Shown in pieces: positions 4,099 through 25,405 of a DNA stretch of 64,000 nucleotides (position 1 is the first letter of the stretch; each line of letters begins with the position of its first letter). The position numbers and the translations under genes were made by a program. The stretch is taken from the sequence record OR167180, one strand, 5' to 3'. The notes beneath the pieces were generated by a model. That model searched no databases. It was not told where the DNA came from and worked only from the letters and a program-made list of their open reading frames with translations. The DNA is from Escherichia phage MIZ4.

Positions 4099-4110
4099 CA
4101 ACTTTTTGGA

Positions 4111-4587
4111 TTATTTTTCTTGATGCTCGCGCTCATACTTTTCGAAATAAAATTCTACTGGCTGATCGTGGATTGAAAGCAAGCCAAAGCGTTTAGCCGC
4201 TCGCAATCCCATATTGCGCTGAATGTACTTCTGGAAGTTCTCTCGTATACACTTACGCCAGTATTCTAAGCCCATACAGCTTTTATAAAGATTGCATTGT
4301 ACACACGCCGGATTCATGTTATCAAGTATATCATGTTCCGGTTTATGCATTCCTACAACCTTATACTTCCACGATCCATCATCATTACGGGCAATTCGTC
4401 CATTTTCATCATAGACTACCTTTGAGCGTCGCAATACTGGTTTGATGTGGTCTGCGTGCCAGCGATCCCCTAGTTCCTCGCCACAATAGGCACAACGTCC
4501 ACCGTATTTCATTTTCAGGATCTGGCGTTGCTCTTTCTTTGACAATTTTTTAGGTTTAGGGGCTTTCGCCCCTTCATTATCACACAT
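4111..4587 (-). CDS. HNH endonuclease (free-standing, homing-endonuclease-like)
   Basis: ORF track; CAYCGEEL..HADHIKPV ... N..CVQCN..K His-Me finger pattern. Confidence 0.7.
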   Translation of the reverse strand: MCDNEGAKAPKPKKLSKKEQRQILKMKYGGRCAYCGEELGDRWHADHIKPVLRRSKVVYDENGRIARNDDGSWKYKVVGMHKPEHDILDNMNPACVQCNLYKSCMGLEYWRKCIRENFQKYIQRNMGLRAAKRFGLLSIHDQPVEFYFEKYEREHQEK

Positions 4588-6082
4588 CGAATACCTCTTT
4601 TACTGTATTTGCTGTGGTCTTGTCGTAGCGAATACGTTTGATGATTGGGAGAAATAAAGAGAACTCCGGTTCATCTTCTTTACGTGATTTGCTGCGAATG
4701 TACCCGTTGCATGTCATCTCAATGACTTTTCCAATCAGGTTATGACGGTCAGCCCATAACATTTCTCGGTCGAGTTCATTTCGACGATCGAACGGAATTA
4801 CACGTTCGATACCATCATCACCTTTTTCGGTTGTGGTGTCGGTTAATCCCGATCCGGTATTAGTCATCATTCGTCCGCACGCACTACGGACAGTAAAACC
4901 GCCTACCTTATTAGGATCTTTACTATGCGGATATACATCAACAATTTCCGCGTCGAAGTCAATAACTTCTTTAAATTTAACCTGATCTTTACTACGGCGA
5001 TCTTCAAATACACCATGTAAATTTTTAAGGATAATACCTTCTAAGCCCATGTTGACATAACGATGATATACTTCGCGAGCTTCATCGATATTGTTAACTA
5101 CGGTATTTTCGATTATCTGAACACGAGGATCGTTAAGTTCTTCAACAATCTGTTTTAGTTCTTCGAATCGATCTTTATATTGCTTCGTTGCTTTCTCGTT
5201 TCCGTAATACACATCACGGTCGATAACATCCCAGACAGTGTAAACAATACATTGGGCTTCTTCTTTTGGAATAGTTCCTTTCAGTGATTTGTTGAGGATA
5301 CCATTTCCGGTCTGACGATCTGCAACAACGGATTCTTTCACCGCTTCCGCTACTGGCGTTAATGGCATTTCCTCTTCTTCAAATATCCATGACAGAGTAC
5401 CATCATAAACGCTCTCAACGAAGTTCTGCGCTGGTGTTTGCGAAAGGGTAGGCATATATACCAATTCGCCATCTAGAACAATTCCACGGCCTCGTAGACG
5501 CTCTAAAACCGCAAACAAATCATCAAGCCCTTGATAGGTATTACCTGAACGGGTATAGATTGATAATGTTTCCCCGTCAATATCAGCCATACCACGAGCG
5601 CCATCGCTTTTAAGTTGTGCATACGCCGGATACTTGATATTAGCAATAGTCTTATCAGAACATGACGATGCCAGGTGGCACGGTTGCTGGGGGATCAGTT
5701 TCTTCCATACCTTGTTTGCAGTGGTAGCGGAACAACCGCATTCCAGGTCACGATTCAGGACCATCATTGCAACTTTAGCATCATCCTCTGACAAGCAAGT
5801 CAGAGTATCGGTAACTAGCTGTAATGCTGCGTTGCCAGTTACTTGACGCGTGGCAAGTTTATTTTTAAAGACCTGTAATGCACCGGATAAAGACAATACA
5901 GACGAATAACGCGATGGTTTATCGTATTTCTTTACGCCAAACGTAACCTGTTTGCAATATGCCAGATAAAAGCATTCTTTCAGCGTTTCATTGCTCGCGG
6001 ATTCTTTCAGAATCTTTTCTTTCAGCGATGTTTTGTCTGTTGCTGCAAGCTGATTAATGATATTAAGAATTGACATTTTCAC
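4580..6082 (-). CDS. 30: ATP-dependent DNA ligase
   Basis: ORF track; KSDGAR adenylation motif; collinear by eye with T4 gp30 (GLEGIILKN, KFKEVID, NTFEDVF-like C-terminus). Confidence 0.92.
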   Translation of the reverse strand: MKMSILNIINQLAATDKTSLKEKILKESASNETLKECFYLAYCKQVTFGVKKYDKPSRYSSVLSLSGALQVFKNKLATRQVTGNAALQLVTDTLTCLSEDDAKVAMMVLNRDLECGCSATTANKVWKKLIPQQPCHLASSCSDKTIANIKYPAYAQLKSDGARGMADIDGETLSIYTRSGNTYQGLDDLFAVLERLRGRGIVLDGELVYMPTLSQTPAQNFVESVYDGTLSWIFEEEEMPLTPVAEAVKESVVADRQTGNGILNKSLKGTIPKEEAQCIVYTVWDVIDRDVYYGNEKATKQYKDRFEELKQIVEELNDPRVQIIENTVVNNIDEAREVYHRYVNMGLEGIILKNLHGVFEDRRSKDQVKFKEVIDFDAEIVDVYPHSKDPNKVGGFTVRSACGRMMTNTGSGLTDTTTEKGDDGIERVIPFDRRNELDREMLWADRHNLIGKVIEMTCNGYIRSKSRKEDEPEFSLFLPIIKRIRYDKTTANTVKEVFDV

Positions 6083-7465: not shown

Positions 7466-7958
7466 TACCCTTCAAATCAGTCAATAATGCTTTTGGAATA
7501 CGCGTAACCGTAATGTCGGCTTTATCCAAAATATCAGCCCAATCACGCCCACCATTTCGATCATATGTGTCGCAGTAATATATGTGTTTAATACCACTGT
7601 TTGCAATTGCTTTAGCGCAATCTGGACACGGTGAAGCAGTACACCACATACTAGCGCCTTCAATCGATACACCGCTACGGGCAGCAAACAAAATAGCATT
7701 TAATTCAGCGTGGATCTCGTTTTTCTGTGACCATGCACTATGCTCTGGTCGTTTTTCTGGGATCATTTTGCCGTCATCATCCAGCCAACCGCTTTTATGT
7801 GCATGACAGCTACAGTTTTCTTGCCCTGCTGGAGTGCCGTTAAATCCAGTAGAAATGATTCGCCCGTCTTTTTCGATCAGTGCGCCTACCTTCCACGAAA
7901 CACATTTAGAGTTCTTTGCTATTAGATAGGCGATCTGCATGTAAGTTTGTGACAACAT
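7443..7958 (-). CDS. cd: dCMP deaminase
   Basis: ORF track; HAE zinc-binding and PCxxC motifs (CSCHAHKSG ... HAELNAI ... ASPCPDCAKAI). Confidence 0.9.
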   Translation of the reverse strand: MLSQTYMQIAYLIAKNSKCVSWKVGALIEKDGRIISTGFNGTPAGQENCSCHAHKSGWLDDDGKMIPEKRPEHSAWSQKNEIHAELNAILFAARSGVSIEGASMWCTASPCPDCAKAIANSGIKHIYYCDTYDRNGGRDWADILDKADITVTRIPKALLTDLKGIDNDRTN

Positions 7959-7979
7959 AATATAATCCTCACATATTAA

Positions 7980-8183
7980 TTAACCGTATACGCGAAAGTA
8001 TTCTACTGATCCGTCGCTATACTGTTTTACATTGAATGTATTCACACCATGATTATTTCTCATGATGACATATACACTGCGACGTTCATCGCTAAACGGC
8101 ATAACTGGCGCGGGTTCAATGTCAACACTAAAACCACGTTTAGCAAGTGCTTCTCCTAATTGCTTGAGTTTATCGGTAAACAT
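7980..8183 (-). CDS. hypothetical small protein
   Basis: ORF track. Confidence 0.45.
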   Translation of the reverse strand: MFTDKLKQLGEALAKRGFSVDIEPAPVMPFSDERRSVYVIMRNNHGVNTFNVKQYSDGSVEYFRVYG

Positions 8184-9082
8184 TAAAAGTCTCCGTAGTT
8201 AACCTGAAAACATTCTACACCAATTGAGCGGTACATGTCAACCACTTGATCACGGTCATCTACCGCCAAAACAACATGATAACGCGGTGCAATTTCAGAG
8301 AAGAAAATCTCTTTCTTCACTTCATGATCAGGACGACGATCATTAGTTTCACGTTGAAAGTGATCACTAGGTTCAATACCCTGTTCACGCAGCCATTGCA
8401 GAGTATCTTCTTCGCAAACATCCTCACGCCCTGAGCATGTAATGATACGATAACCATTATCACGATACAGTTTAAGCATTTCGATCACTTGCGGACGCGG
8501 TTTATCTTCTTTGACCTTTGTCCAGTCAAACGGATGACGACCGCCCTTATCCGCTAATGTCCCATCAATATCAAAGATCACTGCCTTTGGCAGCATGGTA
8601 TTCGGTTTGTATACTTCTTGACCCATATATTCCTGCATCAGATAAAATTGGTTACGCAAATGAGAAAGTGGAATTGCTTTCTCGCCGCGATAGAAATTAC
8701 GTTTCTTTAGTGTCTCAAACGGTTCATTGAACACTTGTTCAGTATACACCGCGTTAAATTCTTTTGCAAGTTCTTTATAGAATACACGATGTTTTTCTTT
8801 CAGGTTAGTATCAGAGATAATGATACTTAATCCGCGTGATAGAGTCTCACGAGCAATCATTCTCTGAATAGACTCTACCAGCTTTTCTTTTTCCTTAGTA
8901 TACTTGTATTTCAAATGTGAGTCAACACCAAACAACATAAGACGAAGGTCATCACGATTCACATTACGATAATTACTAAACCGTTTACATGTCTCCATAG
9001 CCCATGTAGTTTTACCGGACCCAGAACAACCAACGGTTAAAATCACTTCACATTTCGGCATTATTTCTCCTTCGGTTTGCAC
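8183..9082 (-). CDS. pseT: polynucleotide 5'-kinase/3'-phosphatase
   Basis: ORF track; P-loop GCSGSGKTT; HAD motif FDIDGTLA; C-terminal VECFQV..GDF like T4 Pnk. Confidence 0.92.
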   Translation of the reverse strand: MQTEGEIMPKCEVILTVGCSGSGKTTWAMETCKRFSNYRNVNRDDLRLMLFGVDSHLKYKYTKEKEKLVESIQRMIARETLSRGLSIIISDTNLKEKHRVFYKELAKEFNAVYTEQVFNEPFETLKKRNFYRGEKAIPLSHLRNQFYLMQEYMGQEVYKPNTMLPKAVIFDIDGTLADKGGRHPFDWTKVKEDKPRPQVIEMLKLYRDNGYRIITCSGREDVCEEDTLQWLREQGIEPSDHFQRETNDRRPDHEVKKEIFFSEIAPRYHVVLAVDDRDQVVDMYRSIGVECFQVNYGDF

Positions 9083-19840: not shown

Positions 19841-19877
19841 GATATGTGCATTATACACTATTGCGTTACGCTGTCAA
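19841..19877 (-). promoter_or_regulatory. early promoter (TTGACA / TATAAT-like)
   Basis: read directly on minus strand. Confidence 0.4.
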
Positions 19878-20423
19878 CTCTTTTTCAAAAGATTTTACGA
19901 TATACATTAAATTTCTAATTTCGGACGGTGGGATTGTCTCTGTCCACCCGTCCGGCATAACTTTTTGCGATACGTGGTGTGTTTTATTACTAAGTTTTTG
20001 TCGAACAATACCCTCTAATTTTAGGGGTATGTTTCCATCTTTAGTTGTTAGCGTATGGAATATAAAGTGACGAACGGAAGACACGCTGGATTGCTGTTTC
20101 ATCCTTTCCTCGGCTTTTTTGTTGGTGATTCCGAACTTATACCCGACAATACAGCCCCAATTATCAACCAGTTTTTGTATATAAAAGGTTCCTGGTTTTC
20201 TTTTATCATAACCTCCTTTTTGAGTGGGACATTTCGGACACTGCATATCATCTAAAGATGCGACATATTTGCCATGAACGCAGCAATCCATACTTAGATT
20301 CTTTTCTCTTGCATTAATATACCCATTAATAAATCCATTGGATTTTACTTTTTCATTATGAGAACAAAATTCATCAATTCGTATATTTGCTGATATAACA
20401 TTTTTTCTTCTCATTCGTTCCAT
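19866..20423 (-). CDS. zinc-finger protein with T5orf172/GIY-YIG-like motif
   Basis: ORF track; Cys/His cluster N-terminally, then GTFYIQKL...GYKFGITNKKAEERM. Confidence 0.45.
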   Translation of the reverse strand: MERMRRKNVISANIRIDEFCSHNEKVKSNGFINGYINAREKNLSMDCCVHGKYVASLDDMQCPKCPTQKGGYDKRKPGTFYIQKLVDNWGCIVGYKFGITNKKAEERMKQQSSVSSVRHFIFHTLTTKDGNIPLKLEGIVRQKLSNKTHHVSQKVMPDGWTETIPPSEIRNLMYIVKSFEKELTA

Positions 20424-20701
20424 CCAACATTCTTGGCAACCACCTCCCCCATTTTTAAGTATATCGATCGTGGTTAATTTTTTGCTTGTGATTTGGATTT
20501 AATCCACAAGCAATTTTAATTTTAGATCGTACACCGGACCACTCATAGAATCCCAAATATATCATATCTCCGCTTTTTATTTTTGGTGAATTTAATGCTT
20601 CATTTCAATCTCAATTGGAGATTTTGAATTATAGTAATGGATATATTCTATATCTTTAGCAAATCTGGTGTTCATTTTGTCCTCCGTTGTTTCGATGTGT
20701 G

Positions 20702-20730
20702 TATTATACATTACCACATCAGCACGTCAA
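20702..20730 (-). promoter_or_regulatory. early promoter-like cassette (TTGACG) with no clear downstream gene
   Basis: read directly; only a 27-codon ORF follows. Confidence 0.3.
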
Positions 20731-20792
20731 CACCTTTTTCATAAAATTTTAGGCAATAAAAAAGCCTCCCCGAAGGGAGGCTATAAAATTCA

Positions 20793-21767
20793 TTACATCG
20801 CTAACAGAGAGTCCAGGTCATCCAGATCAGAAGCGGAGGAAGTACCGCCACCCAGGTCCAGAGATGCCATCAGGTCATCAGCGGAAGAATCTAACGCAGT
20901 GCTAGCTGCGTTAATACCAACTACAGTGCTAGCTGCGGTAGTACCAGCGTCGAATGCATTCATCTGTGCGTCAAAATCATCAAGCTGGCTGTTAATCGCT
21001 GCCGCAGCACTGGAAGCCGCAGCACCAGCTACCATAGAAACGCCCATAGTTTTCTTAAATTTGGTTTCCAGTTCATCGAACGGTTTAAACTGGCTAGGCG
21101 CTACAATCTCACTCAGATCAACCATGTTTTCCATCAGATATTTCTGATATGCTTCGTCTTCAATCTTCGGAAGCTGTGATTGCTGCATGAAACGAGAATC
21201 ATCATAGTTCTGGTGTTTATCAACCTTCTTAGCTTTCAGGAGGAAGTTAGCACCGGAGAACACACAAGTTACATCTACCGGAACTTCGCCCATGTCGGTA
21301 TTCACGTTCACCATTGCAACGATCTTATCATAAATTTTCTGACCGAAGCGGAATTTGAATACTTTACCTTCATTTTCTGGTGCTTGAGGATCTTTCAGTA
21401 CCAGAATGTTTGCGTAGTAAGACGCTTTACGCTTAATCAGTTGCCATTCGGTTTTATCGGTATTGTATAGGTCTTTTTCGTTAATATATTTGCACACAGG
21501 GCAAGAATCAAAATCACCGTGGGTGCTTGAGCAGTTTTCCCAATACCATTTGCCATTAACTTTGAAGGAATGGTTTACCAGTTTCACAATCGGCAGACCG
21601 TCTTCTGTCTTAGACGGCAGGAAGCGAATCAGGGCTTCACCGTTACCTGCTGCATCAGTCTTAATCTTCCACTCTTTCGGATCTTCTTTGGAGAAACCGT
21701 TGCCACCTTTCAGTGCGGCCAGTTGAGCTTGCAGTTTGGAGCTATCTTGACGACGAAACATGTTCAT
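20793..21767 (-). CDS. 32: single-stranded DNA-binding protein
   Basis: ORF track; ALIRFLPSK, zinc-binding H/C cluster ([16 protein letters not shown]), acidic C-terminus. Confidence 0.93.
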
Positions 21768-21827
21768 AATTATACCTCTTTATACATTAACTATTGATTA
21801 ATTTACGTTTTATACTATATCAGATAC

Positions 21828-22424
21828 TTAATTGCTTGTCAATACTTTATCAATTATATCTAACAGTTTTGGCTTTCTATTTTCAAATTCTAACATCTCT
21901 TCGGGAGAAATGTCAACTACTTCTGTTTTGTTGAAAAAGTTTGGGTCTATAGCATCAGCAACAAAGTTTCTCGCAAGTGCTGCCGCTTTCTCATGAACAT
22001 ATATTCCCAAATATATCAACTTCTTTCTTTCGACCTGAATATTGGCAACATATTTACCATCTCGTTTATAAAGACTAACACCGATATATTCAGACGATCG
22101 ACCTTTCTGTTTACCCATATTTCTTGAGTTTTGTTGCTCGTTCGCATCTCTCAAGTTTTCAATCCGATTATCTGTTATAATTCGGTTAACATGGTCAACG
22201 TATTTTGGCATGTATCCATGATGCATAAAGAAAATTATTCTATGCTCTTTATGATGTTTACCATCGATACACACCAATCTGTATCCATGACTAGGATTAA
22301 CTCCACCCGCTCTAGATCCGACTTTATGCTTTCTGTTTGTCGATATCTTGCGAATCAGCTTACCGTTATCATATTTAAAGAGTTCATGACAACGAGCATA
22401 CAATTCAGGATCATATGTTTTCAC
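21828..22424 (-). CDS. HNH (HNH_3-type) + AP2-domain homing endonuclease
   Basis: ORF track; GYRLVCIDGKHHKEHRIIF...VDHVNRIITDNRIENLR; AP2-like SEYIGVSLYKRDGKYVANI; sits between 32 and 59. Confidence 0.7.
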   Translation of the reverse strand: MKTYDPELYARCHELFKYDNGKLIRKISTNRKHKVGSRAGGVNPSHGYRLVCIDGKHHKEHRIIFFMHHGYMPKYVDHVNRIITDNRIENLRDANEQQNSRNMGKQKGRSSEYIGVSLYKRDGKYVANIQVERKKLIYLGIYVHEKAAALARNFVADAIDPNFFNKTEVVDISPEEMLEFENRKPKLLDIIDKVLTSN

Positions 22425-23088
22425 CTTTTAACCTCGATATTTCTTTACACTCTTTAACTACTTTAACAAATAATGCTCTTGCTTTTGCGGCGTCAATAAC
22501 AAGTAGTTTCTTGTACGCCTTCATTTTAACACTATAAGTTTGCCAAATCAAGTCTTTGGCTACCTTGTCGTGTTCGTCGATTATATTTAGAAAGCTATCT
22601 AACAACATAAACGACTCAAACGATATAATCCGATTTTGCAGTAGTTTAAAGATACCGCTAGTTTCGGTTGCAGGATTATATGTAATTAGCTCTTTAAGAG
22701 TAACCCCGCGTTTCTCGGAGAAGTATACCAGACTTTTAATGTCATCGTCAAATCTTGTTGCTGCATCGGTTATCTTTCCTATGTATTCCATATAAAAGCC
22801 GTATGCGTCAACATCAGTGATTTCCCCTACCCATGCATCGGTATTAGCTGCCAGATTGCTTAGGAATAGGAAGTATAGTTCTCTTAGATTGTACTTTTCC
22901 GCTAATTTTGCGAAATAATACTTATCTCTGCGTTTATTGAATGCGGCATCAGACAACCGCATCCTCCAATTGTATTTTACGCAATCATAACGCCCGTTCA
23001 TATGAGCTTTCATCATGCAATATAACATATACACAGATTTAGCATTAATTCGCATATCTGGATCTGGAGGAAGACGGTTTCTGATCAT
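22411..23088 (-). CDS. 59: helicase loader
   Basis: ORF track; collinear with T4 gp59 (SVYMLYCMMKAHMNGRYDCVKYNW, ISFESFMLLDSFLNIIDEHD). Confidence 0.92.
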   Translation of the reverse strand: MIRNRLPPDPDMRINAKSVYMLYCMMKAHMNGRYDCVKYNWRMRLSDAAFNKRRDKYYFAKLAEKYNLRELYFLFLSNLAANTDAWVGEITDVDAYGFYMEYIGKITDAATRFDDDIKSLVYFSEKRGVTLKELITYNPATETSGIFKLLQNRIISFESFMLLDSFLNIIDEHDKVAKDLIWQTYSVKMKAYKKLLVIDAAKARALFVKVVKECKEISRLKGENI

Positions 23089-23097
23089 ACATACCCC

Positions 23098-23367
23098 TTA
23101 AATATCGAGAGTGTTGGTCGGTTCGTCGATCACTCCCTTCCTGAGCGTTCTATTTACTATACATTCTTGTGTGATCTTGTCAATAATGGACACCGGAATA
23201 TACTTCTGATAGTGACCATATTCTATAGAGTTTTCCTCTACAAACTGAGTTGTCGCTTCAAGATAAGTCAATCCCTCTTCAACAACCAGTTTTTCGATTG
23301 CAAGACCGTTTGCTGTTTTGTTCGCGGCTTTTACCGCATGTTCATTAAGCATTGAACACCCGATCAT
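23098..23367 (-). CDS. 33: late transcription accessory protein gp33 (synteny-based)
   Basis: ORF track; position between 59 and dsbA. Confidence 0.5.
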   Translation of the reverse strand: MIGCSMLNEHAVKAANKTANGLAIEKLVVEEGLTYLEATTQFVEENSIEYGHYQKYIPVSIIDKITQECIVNRTLRKGVIDEPTNTLDI

Positions 23368-23620
23368 AGAGTTCTACCGCTTCATCGCGTTCTGCTTCGA
23401 AGGTTTCGCGCTGTTGCTGGTGATACAGTTTAAACAGAATGCCCCACATTTTACCATCTACGCCTAATTCTTCTTTAGCACGCTGCTTGATCTCTTTGAT
23501 CTTATCGCCATATGCTTCTTGAATGGTTTTCTGATCGCTGGCTTCTTTAATCAGTTGTGCCAGGGTATTTCCGTGCACTGCTTCGTCAAATACTACTTTT
23601 TCTTTTTTCTGTTCAGTCAT
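23345..23620 (-). CDS. dsbA: dsDNA-binding protein DsbA (synteny-based)
   Basis: ORF track; size and position. Confidence 0.5.
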   Translation of the reverse strand: MTEQKKEKVVFDEAVHGNTLAQLIKEASDQKTIQEAYGDKIKEIKQRAKEELGVDGKMWGILFKLYHQQQRETFEAERDEAVELYDRVFNA

Positions 23621-25179: not shown

Positions 25180-25181
25180 AA

Positions 25182-25367
25182 TTAAGTTCTCTCCACTCTC
25201 ACAACAACATATTCGCCAAACGAGTTAGATACTTCACGATCATACCCGTATTTCTCCATAACTCGCAGAATTGCATTGTTTAATTCGGCGCGGAAATAAT
25301 TGTAATCCTTATCAGGGATTCTGTCAACTACCCATTTTGCACCGTCTGACAAATCAACTTTAACCAT
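25182..25367 (-). CDS. hypothetical small protein
   Basis: ORF track. Confidence 0.4.
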   Translation of the reverse strand: MVKVDLSDGAKWVVDRIPDKDYNYFRAELNNAILRVMEKYGYDREVSNSFGEYVVVRVERT

Positions 25368-25405
25368 AATATATCATCCTCTTTTGTTTCTATCAAGCCT
25401 TATTT

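Follow-up and report, generated by a model that had tools for sequence, protein, structure and literature searches.

Genes 59 and 32 of a Krischvirus are separated by what is likely a functional, optional and freestanding homing endonuclease gene (HEG) of the HNH-AP2 type, placed exactly at the boundary between the two genes, with cleavage and homing as the activities predicted from its sequence. The gene is a member of a known HNH-AP2 class and has itself already been annotated and noted in the literature. The gain is incremental because the class, the phenomenon and the specific gene were on record; what is added here is the exact junctions, the Shine-Dalgarno sequence and start codon inside gene 59, the promoter in the 3' extension, two diverged alleles and a prediction of the target.

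Genomic context

In the window, the whole stretch of 64,000 nucleotides that was analysed, the ORF list places a reading frame of 198 amino acids at 21828..22424 on the minus strand, with a GTG start and a TAA stop at 21828-21830. It coincides exactly with a GenBank CDS labelled 'HNH endonuclease' in Escherichia phage MIZ5 (OR167181.1), a member of the Straboviridae, genus Krischvirus, in the RB49-like 'pseudo-T-even' group, and MIZ5 is 100% identical to positions 20600-23400 of the window. The upstream neighbour is gene 59 for the helicase loader (22411..23088, minus strand; Pfam T4_Gp59_N 5.8e-41 and T4_Gp59_C 6.5e-29) and the downstream neighbour is gene 32 for the single-stranded DNA-binding protein (20793..21767, minus strand; Pfam gp32 1e-51). 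The gene for gp33 (23098-23367) lies further away on the same strand as these three. The HNH-AP2 gene is thus freestanding between two genes read in the same direction and outside any intron or intein.

The GTG start (22424-22422) is found 11 nt upstream of the gp59 stop codon TGA (22413-22411), which results in an overlap of 14 nt, and a GAGG motif (22435-22432) is located 7 nt 5' of the GTG within the last codons of gene 59. An earlier reading made from the sequence alone had described a 198-amino-acid ORF between gp32 and gp59 that overlaps the gp59 stop, and the ORF list, the Pfam matches and the GenBank CDS all agree with that description. The gene has a GC content of 35.2% and a GC3 of 29.6%, compared with a GC content of 40.6% for the whole window and a GC3 of 37-45% for the neighbours. 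A tblastn search found no paralogues elsewhere in the window, and there are three matching places in the whole MIZ5 genome.

Domain structure of the protein

The protein is read from its sequence as an I-HmuI-like HNH module (D77/H78 and N102, with N86/N90) followed by an AP2-fold module and a C-terminal helix, which makes it a putative nuclease. The first module is an HNH_3 (beta-beta-alpha-metal) nuclease core at amino acids 61-101 (22122..22244, minus strand) with D77-H78, N86, N90 and N99/N102. It matches Pfam HNH_3 (PF13392) with an E-value of 2.2e-11 and 43.6 bits against a cut-off of 24.8. In PHROG it matches phrog_99 'HNH endonuclease' (E 1.5e-50) and all PHROG matches are HNH families, while neither NCBIfam nor the defence-system models of PADLOC gave a match.

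The AP2-fold DNA-binding domain at amino acids 112-153 (21966..22091, minus strand) consists of a three-stranded sheet and a helix. As a single sequence it matches Pfam AP2 with E 7.4e-5 and 23.4 bits, below the gathering threshold of 33.3, yet the call is rescued because the family profile and the predicted fold agree. A profile derived from the alignment matches the plant AP2/ERF domains of WRI1 (5.1e-9) and TEM1 (4.1e-5). The same profile matches I-HmuI (1u3e) at 5.4e-6, with the D-H pair and the terminal Asn (VDH...N motif) aligned. The structure model is confident and well folded, and the predicted fold is similar to a solved HNH homing endonuclease and to solved AP2 domains. An HNH_3-type motif combined with an AP2-like domain, as the sequence-only reading had claimed, is accordingly what Pfam HNH_3, phrog_99, the family profile and the fold all indicate.

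Fifty-two relatives were found among 5.8 billion proteins, mostly 150-180 amino acids long and annotated as HNH_3 with or without AP2; the nearest one beyond the second Krischvirus allele (85%) is just 49% identical. Nine residues (R62, D77, H78, N86, R87, E89, N90, R92 and N102) are invariant across 25 aligned homologues, and N99 is conserved in at least 90% of them. This set comprises the catalytic D-H general-base pair (D77, H78) and the Asn residues assigned as metal and structural ligands. A C-terminal extension at amino acids 168-198 (21831..21923, minus strand) is found solely in the two Krischvirus alleles, and the 23 other aligned homologues lack it. This lineage-specific part, recognised from the alignment, the model and the promoter scan, is one long predicted helix that spans residues 174-197 in the model.

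Allele 2 is labelled 'Fis family transcriptional regulator' in GenBank, on the CDS of E26 (locus sequence 5135-5728) and 011D4 (locus sequence 4109-4702). Scans with Pfam, PHROG and NCBIfam do not support this label, which appears to be an annotation error because no match to it was found in any of them.

HNH-AP2 genes have been recognised since 2004-2010 as a class of putative HEGs in T4-related phages (PMC1524935; PMC2993671 Table 5), with one in RB49, two in JSE, three in RB43 and six in RB16 (PMC2993671 Table 5). The order of HNH_3 and then AP2 is shared with the members in RB49 (ORF040c), JSE, RB43 and RB16 and with those in cyanobacteria and Tetrahymena. In contrast, the HNH-AP2 copies at other Krischvirus loci are only ~40% identical, and other homologues lack the C-terminal helix of about 30 amino acids that characterises the lineage at the 59/32 junction. 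I-HmuI of Bacillus phage SPO1 (PDB 1u3e) differs in being intron-encoded and only 18% identical, with NUMOD and helix-turn-helix modules instead of AP2. The family is abundant, with matches in 2498 phage records and at least 538 viral-contig loci, and none of the best 80 of these at least 538 IMG/VR relatives adjoins gp59 or gp32.

Occupancy of the junction

The HNH-AP2 gene is an optional insert with exact junctions. Roughly 1,860 Straboviridae records have gp59; those with a gp59 at least 95% identical numbered 58 and form the base for the occupancy count. The gene is present in 11 of these ~58 Krischvirus records in the form of two alleles whose products share 85% identity. Allele 1 is found in nine records with an amino acid identity of at least 98.5% (MIZ5, ELT4, Skers, Cognac, G2494, Makalu_002, pEJ01, kvi and FL20), all with full-length copies, and allele 2 (85%) in two, E26 and 011D4. 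None of the 11 copies has a frameshift or truncation. The same gene is ORF240 of Ec_Makalu_002, where it has been described as an HNH-type homing endonuclease that is absent from Phi1 (PMC11611945).

The junction is empty in RB49, Phi1, GEC-3S, JSE, MIZ6, Sf20, phiS and three IMG/VR contigs, and no insert at the 59/32 junction was seen in the five IMG/VR gp59 loci examined. Carriers span two ICTV species, Krischvirus gec3s (E26, Makalu_002) and Krischvirus RB49 (011D4), and the type phages GEC-3S and RB49 are both empty. The sequence-only reading had suggested a comparison of this junction across relatives, and a lack of variation in occupancy is refuted by the 11 occupied records out of ~58 and by the precise empty sites.

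Junctions were aligned to the nucleotide in seven occupied genomes (five with allele 1 together with E26 and 011D4) and ten empty ones. From an anchor in gene 59, the -35 box is reached after 625-626 nt in the seven occupied genomes and after 56 nt in the ten empty ones, which corresponds to a net gain of ~569 bp at a precise empty site. Read in the direction of the genes, the sequence at the empty site is ...AAAGAAATATC TCAATTAAAAGCCGAAACAAATAG|TTGACAAGTAAATTTAAATCTGTATAATAG... and that at the occupied site ...AAAGAAATATC GAGGTTAAAAGGTGAAAACATATGA-(HNH)-AAAGTA|TTGACAAG...

The comparison of the seven occupied and ten empty junctions also shows that the 3' end of gene 59 is rewritten over 25 nt in carriers (22411..22435, minus strand), where GAGGTTAAAAGGTGAAAACATATGA replaces TCAATTAAAAGCCGAAACAAATAG. 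Among the last codons TCT CAA has become TCG AGG, GCC has become GGT and one codon has been lost, and the tail of gp59 changes from ...QLKAETNS* to ...RLKGENI*. These changes create the GAGG Shine-Dalgarno motif and the GTG start of the HNH-AP2 gene.

Allele 1 alone has a patch on the right-hand side (21806..21834, minus strand) in which the sequence matches none of the empty sites; the spacer and -10 box of the promoter and the beginning of the 5' UTR lie within it. The extra diverged stretch of allele 1 amounts to ~60 nt of promoter spacer, -10 box and leader, and the diagnostic columns 5-58 downstream of TTGACAAG are restricted to this allele, none being common to all occupied genomes. Allele 2 (E26, 011D4) has the empty-site sequence in the region of this patch.

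When 2.5 kb of upstream and 1.3 kb of downstream sequence were aligned, all seven carriers could be told apart from all ten non-carriers only by the 25-nt patch and by the insert. A long co-conversion haplotype was not found in the flanks of these genomes, where the pattern is that of mosaic recombination in general. Any footprint of recent homing is therefore limited to ~25 nt on the left and, for allele 1, ~60 nt on the right.

Two forms of the 5' UTR and N-terminus of gene 32 (21745-21810, minus strand) are found among Krischviruses. One form, ...AATCAAAAGAAGGAATAGTGAATATGTTTAAACGC (MFKRQD...), occurs in RB49, GEC-3S, JSE, E26 and others. The other, ...AATAGTTAATGTATAAAGAGGTATAATTATGAACAT(G/T)TTTCGT (MNMFRRQD or MNIFRRQD), occurs in all five aligned allele-1 genomes including MIZ5 and also in phiS, which lacks the HEG, and in two IMG/VR contigs, so it is associated with allele 1 and not diagnostic of it.

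Divergence between the alleles

The two alleles differ at 55 synonymous and 44 non-synonymous positions on 120 and 471 sites respectively, which gives a dS of 0.71, a dN of 0.10 and a dN/dS of 0.14. Between the same two phages, gp59 and gp32 have a dS of 0.05-0.10. The low dN/dS together with a dS of 0.71 against 0.05-0.10 in the flanks indicates purifying selection and a history much deeper than that of the surrounding backbone. Neither the distribution nor the divergence of the gene follows the backbone, and on these sequence comparisons it is to be regarded as a mobile and maintained gene.

Identity between the alleles is unevenly distributed. It dips to 0.60-0.62 in windows near amino acid 50 (the strands before HRIIF) and amino acid 140 (the AP2 sheet). 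The first 120 nt of the gene (22305-22424, minus strand) are 98-100% identical between alleles and the rest is 60-92% identical. This conservation is not accounted for by the overlap of 14 nt with gene 59; a boundary of recombination within the HEG is one possible cause, and a constraint that has escaped recognition is another.

Predicted promoters and expression

A sigma-70-type promoter for gene 32, TTGACA-17-TATAGT, was located at 21814..21842 (minus strand) by a promoter scan; it is a consensus match only, with 11 of 12 positions matching. Its -35 box is formed by codons L195-T196 of the HNH-AP2 gene and the promoter spans the stop codon. The RB49 record has an annotated early promoter for gene 32 (-35 and -10) in which the gp59 stop codon TGA forms part of the -35 TTGACA. 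The promoter at 21814..21842 is, as far as the sequence can tell, the counterpart of this RB49 promoter, with a -35 box regenerated from HNH codons.

A second sigma-70-like site inside the C-terminal extension, TTGACA-18-TAGAAT (21887..21916, minus strand; 11 of 12 matches with TG, also a consensus match only), faces gene 32, and its sequence is kept in allele 2 of E26. The scan of the region gave 13 matches, all by consensus, when 8.1 +/- 2.8 are expected by chance.

The HNH-AP2 gene is probably co-transcribed with gene 59 and translationally coupled to it, judging from the arrangement of the two genes. A terminator-like site between them was not detected in the scan, and a terminator-like hairpin is present at 20782..20763, just past the stop codon of gene 32. 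The motif TCTAAATA at 22584..22591 (minus strand) has the same sequence as, and is the counterpart of, a motif inside gene 59 of RB49 that is annotated 'late RB49 promoter' (RB49 locus sequence 5325-5332), and it is a possible source of late transcription for both the HNH-AP2 gene and gene 32. The exact T4-type late promoter TATAAATA has four matches in the window, none of them near the locus, and this count is no more than expected by chance. An RNA hairpin over the ribosome-binding site has been reported for mobE and I-Tev genes. A hairpin hiding the ribosome-binding site of the HNH-AP2 gene was considered and rejected, as the fold of 22370-22480 (minus strand) at -15.8 kcal/mol has a z-score of -0.32 and gives no signal; the z-score for folding of the gene 32 leader is +1.22.

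The embedded promoter invites two explanations other than homing. If the element were a decaying relic, once mobile and now inactive, it could be retained independently of nuclease activity simply because its deletion would remove the gene 32 promoter, an argument that has been made for T4 (PMC2988022). Such a relic would not be expected to show a dN/dS of 0.14 over the whole ORF, intact catalytic residues, 11 copies free of frameshifts and truncations and a confident, well-folded model, and this explanation is extremely unlikely.

It has also been considered that the protein is a domesticated DNA-binding regulator that is no longer mobile and whose AP2 domain, with or without an inactive HNH module, binds close to the gene 32 promoter on the element and tunes the expression of gene 32 or gene 59. 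The promoter elements for gene 32 inside and just past the ORF are in line with this, as are the flanks without a co-conversion footprint, the 'Fis family transcriptional regulator' annotation of the allele-2 protein in some records and the strong purifying selection, which fits a useful function. However, the catalytic and structural residues of the HNH module show no variation, although a protein that only binds DNA could dispense with them, and most Krischviruses manage without the gene. The 'Fis' label lacks support in Pfam, NCBIfam and PHROG, and a mobile history is favoured by the low GC content and by alleles that have diverged more than their surroundings. A regulator of this kind is very unlikely, and a homing endonuclease gene remains the preferred interpretation.

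Proposed homing and target site

As a homing endonuclease gene, the insert would have no promoter of its own and would be transcribed within the gene 59 message, with translation starting from the GAGG-N7-GTG signal that the final gene 59 codons contain. When a carrier and an HEG-less Krischvirus infect the same cell, the enzyme would nick or cut the HEG-less genome at or near the empty junction between the gene 59 stop and the gene 32 promoter. Empty DNA is predicted to be cut at or near ...GAAACAAATAG|TTGACAAG..., and carrier DNA to be left intact. Recombination-dependent repair with the HEG-carrying genome as template would then copy the gene into the HEG-less genome. Immunity of the carrier is proposed to follow from loss of the site through the insertion and the rewriting of the 25 nt. 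A simple deletion would damage the phage, because the essential gene 32 has its -35 box, and possibly a further promoter, within the element.

The prediction of the target is derived from the seven occupied and ten empty genomes. If self-protection is sequence-based, the recognition site must span the empty junction because there is no other fixed difference; the prediction assumes this type of immunity and fails if the enzyme acts like SegG in T4. AP2 domains in plants bind the GCC box, and the GCC of the empty site was considered as such a box. This idea was dropped because RB49 (GTC) and JSE (ACA) differ at that position.

No paper was found that reports a cleavage site for any phage HNH-AP2 enzyme. 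The gene would be a convenient first case, since no such enzyme appears to have a mapped site. With flanks that are ~98% identical with and without the insert, the locus constitutes a clean natural pair for the question of how selfish nuclease genes settle beside essential genes, and it offers two diverged alleles, junctions defined to the nucleotide and a concrete prediction of the target site.

Comparison with segG in T4

The record for T4 (NC_000866) has SegG, 'homing endonuclease; GIY-YIG family', between genes 59 and 32, and segG has been described as inserted at 32/59 with an enzyme that cleaves gene 32 (PMC2988022). Both sources confirm the statement in the sequence-only reading that T4 carries a GIY-YIG endonuclease gene at this junction. 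Its further claim that the same site is here occupied by an endonuclease of a different family also holds, as SegG and the HNH-AP2 protein align in BLASTP with an E-value of 11. The segG gene is a promoter-less cassette on upstream transcripts, and promoters for gene 32 are embedded in its coding region, which discourages deletion (PMC2988022).

The two genes have in common the 59/32 slot, the orientation, an optional occurrence among relatives and promoter elements for gene 32 in the 3' region. In contrast, segG (formerly 32.1) encodes a GIY-YIG protein in phrog_7504 and the HNH-AP2 protein belongs to HNH PHROGs, with no detectable similarity between them. While segG starts 2 nt after gene 59, the HNH-AP2 gene overlaps gene 59 and rewrites its end. 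SegG has been shown experimentally to cut inside gene 32, away from the insertion point, and to drive marker exclusion, whereas cleavage and homing by the HNH-AP2 protein are predictions. The likeness to SegG is one of position and genetic logic only.

Endonuclease genes have occupied the 59/32 slot more than once: SegG-like ones in Tevenvirinae and the HNH-AP2 gene in Krischvirus. SegG with at least 95% identity is present in 141 records, and more distant SegG-like genes adjoin gene 59 in LHE83, PSD2002, RZ and Jiaodavirus KP179, the one in KP179 belonging to phrog_7504. The junction is empty in the four other genera sampled, represented by Winklervirus X20, an Acinetobacter phage, a Tulanevirus and pEC-M719-6WT.2. 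The HNH-AP2 gene constitutes a second, unrelated endonuclease family in a slot that is well studied for segG in T4.

Unrelated freestanding endonuclease genes have reportedly been found at the same intergenic position in T4-related phages before, namely mobC/mobE versus segH/hef in work by Sandegren, Nord and Sjoberg in NAR in 2005. The phenomenon is the same in that case, but the replacement concerns the nrd region and other pairs of families, and the enzymes were tested biochemically.

SegG also provides a precedent for a nuclease in competition between phages, in that it cuts gene 32 and causes marker exclusion in crosses between T2 and T4 (PMC2988022). The HNH-AP2 enzyme might likewise serve to exclude or degrade co-infecting relatives, with homing as a by-product, and its cut site or sites could then be distant from its own locus. 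That gene 32 is flanked in MIZ5 by a second putative endonuclease gene as well (19866-20423) is compatible with such a function, and the DNA-contacting parts diverge most between the alleles (0.60-0.62), as an arms race would predict. In practice the explanation is indistinguishable from homing, as either one requires HEG-less genomes to be cleaved at specific sites. It is also weakened by the lack of a PADLOC defence-system match and by the absence of a fixed difference away from the junction that could confer self-immunity, and competition as the main role is judged unlikely. The interpretation of the gene as a homing endonuclease gene is preferred here too.

A more far-reaching and unlikely suggestion is that the 59/32 boundary is a convergent safe harbour. 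Unrelated HEG families would independently have captured the gene 32 promoter and thereby become undeletable, and the C-terminal helix and the AP2 domain would have gained a second job there, for example in autoregulation or in modulating transcription of gene 32. If this were true, the element would be part selfish nuclease and part regulator.

Other variable positions in the region

The second putative endonuclease gene (19866-20423, minus strand) encodes 185 amino acids, matches phrog_681 'endonuclease' at 2.2e-38 and is separated from gene 32 by a gap of 370 bp (20424-20792). Its GC content is also low (35.7%, GC3 0.31). With the HNH-AP2 gene on one side and this ORF on the other, gene 32 is bracketed by two optional nuclease-like genes in MIZ5. 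The 185-amino-acid ORF is 41% identical to the C-terminal 200 amino acids of RB49p240, a protein of 485 amino acids with CapR, DUF723 and treble-clef zinc-finger repeats. The product of this slot varies in length between genomes: 485 amino acids in RB49, 460 in Phi1, 414 in phiS, 392 in Skers and GEC-3S, 281 in Sf20, 269 in ELT4 and 185 in MIZ5. An unrelated ORF of 109 amino acids is found there in E26, Makalu_002 and MIZ6, and nothing in JSE and FL20.

Another optional HEG slot is located between the small ORF after rnh (~25180-25370) and gene 34. MIZ5, RB49 and others have nothing in this slot, ELT4 has a 187-amino-acid 'homing endonuclease' (ELT4 locus sequence 7776-8339) and FL20 has a fragment annotated 'putative homing endonuclease RB16 2' (FL20 locus sequence 7723-7971).

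The gp32 protein itself varies in length in its Ala/Ser/Thr-rich C-terminal part (~20898-20975, minus strand) because of a repeat of 27 nt (9 codons). Relative to MIZ5, the repeat is longer by one unit in FL20 and shorter by one unit in 011D4, phiS and one IMG/VR contig.
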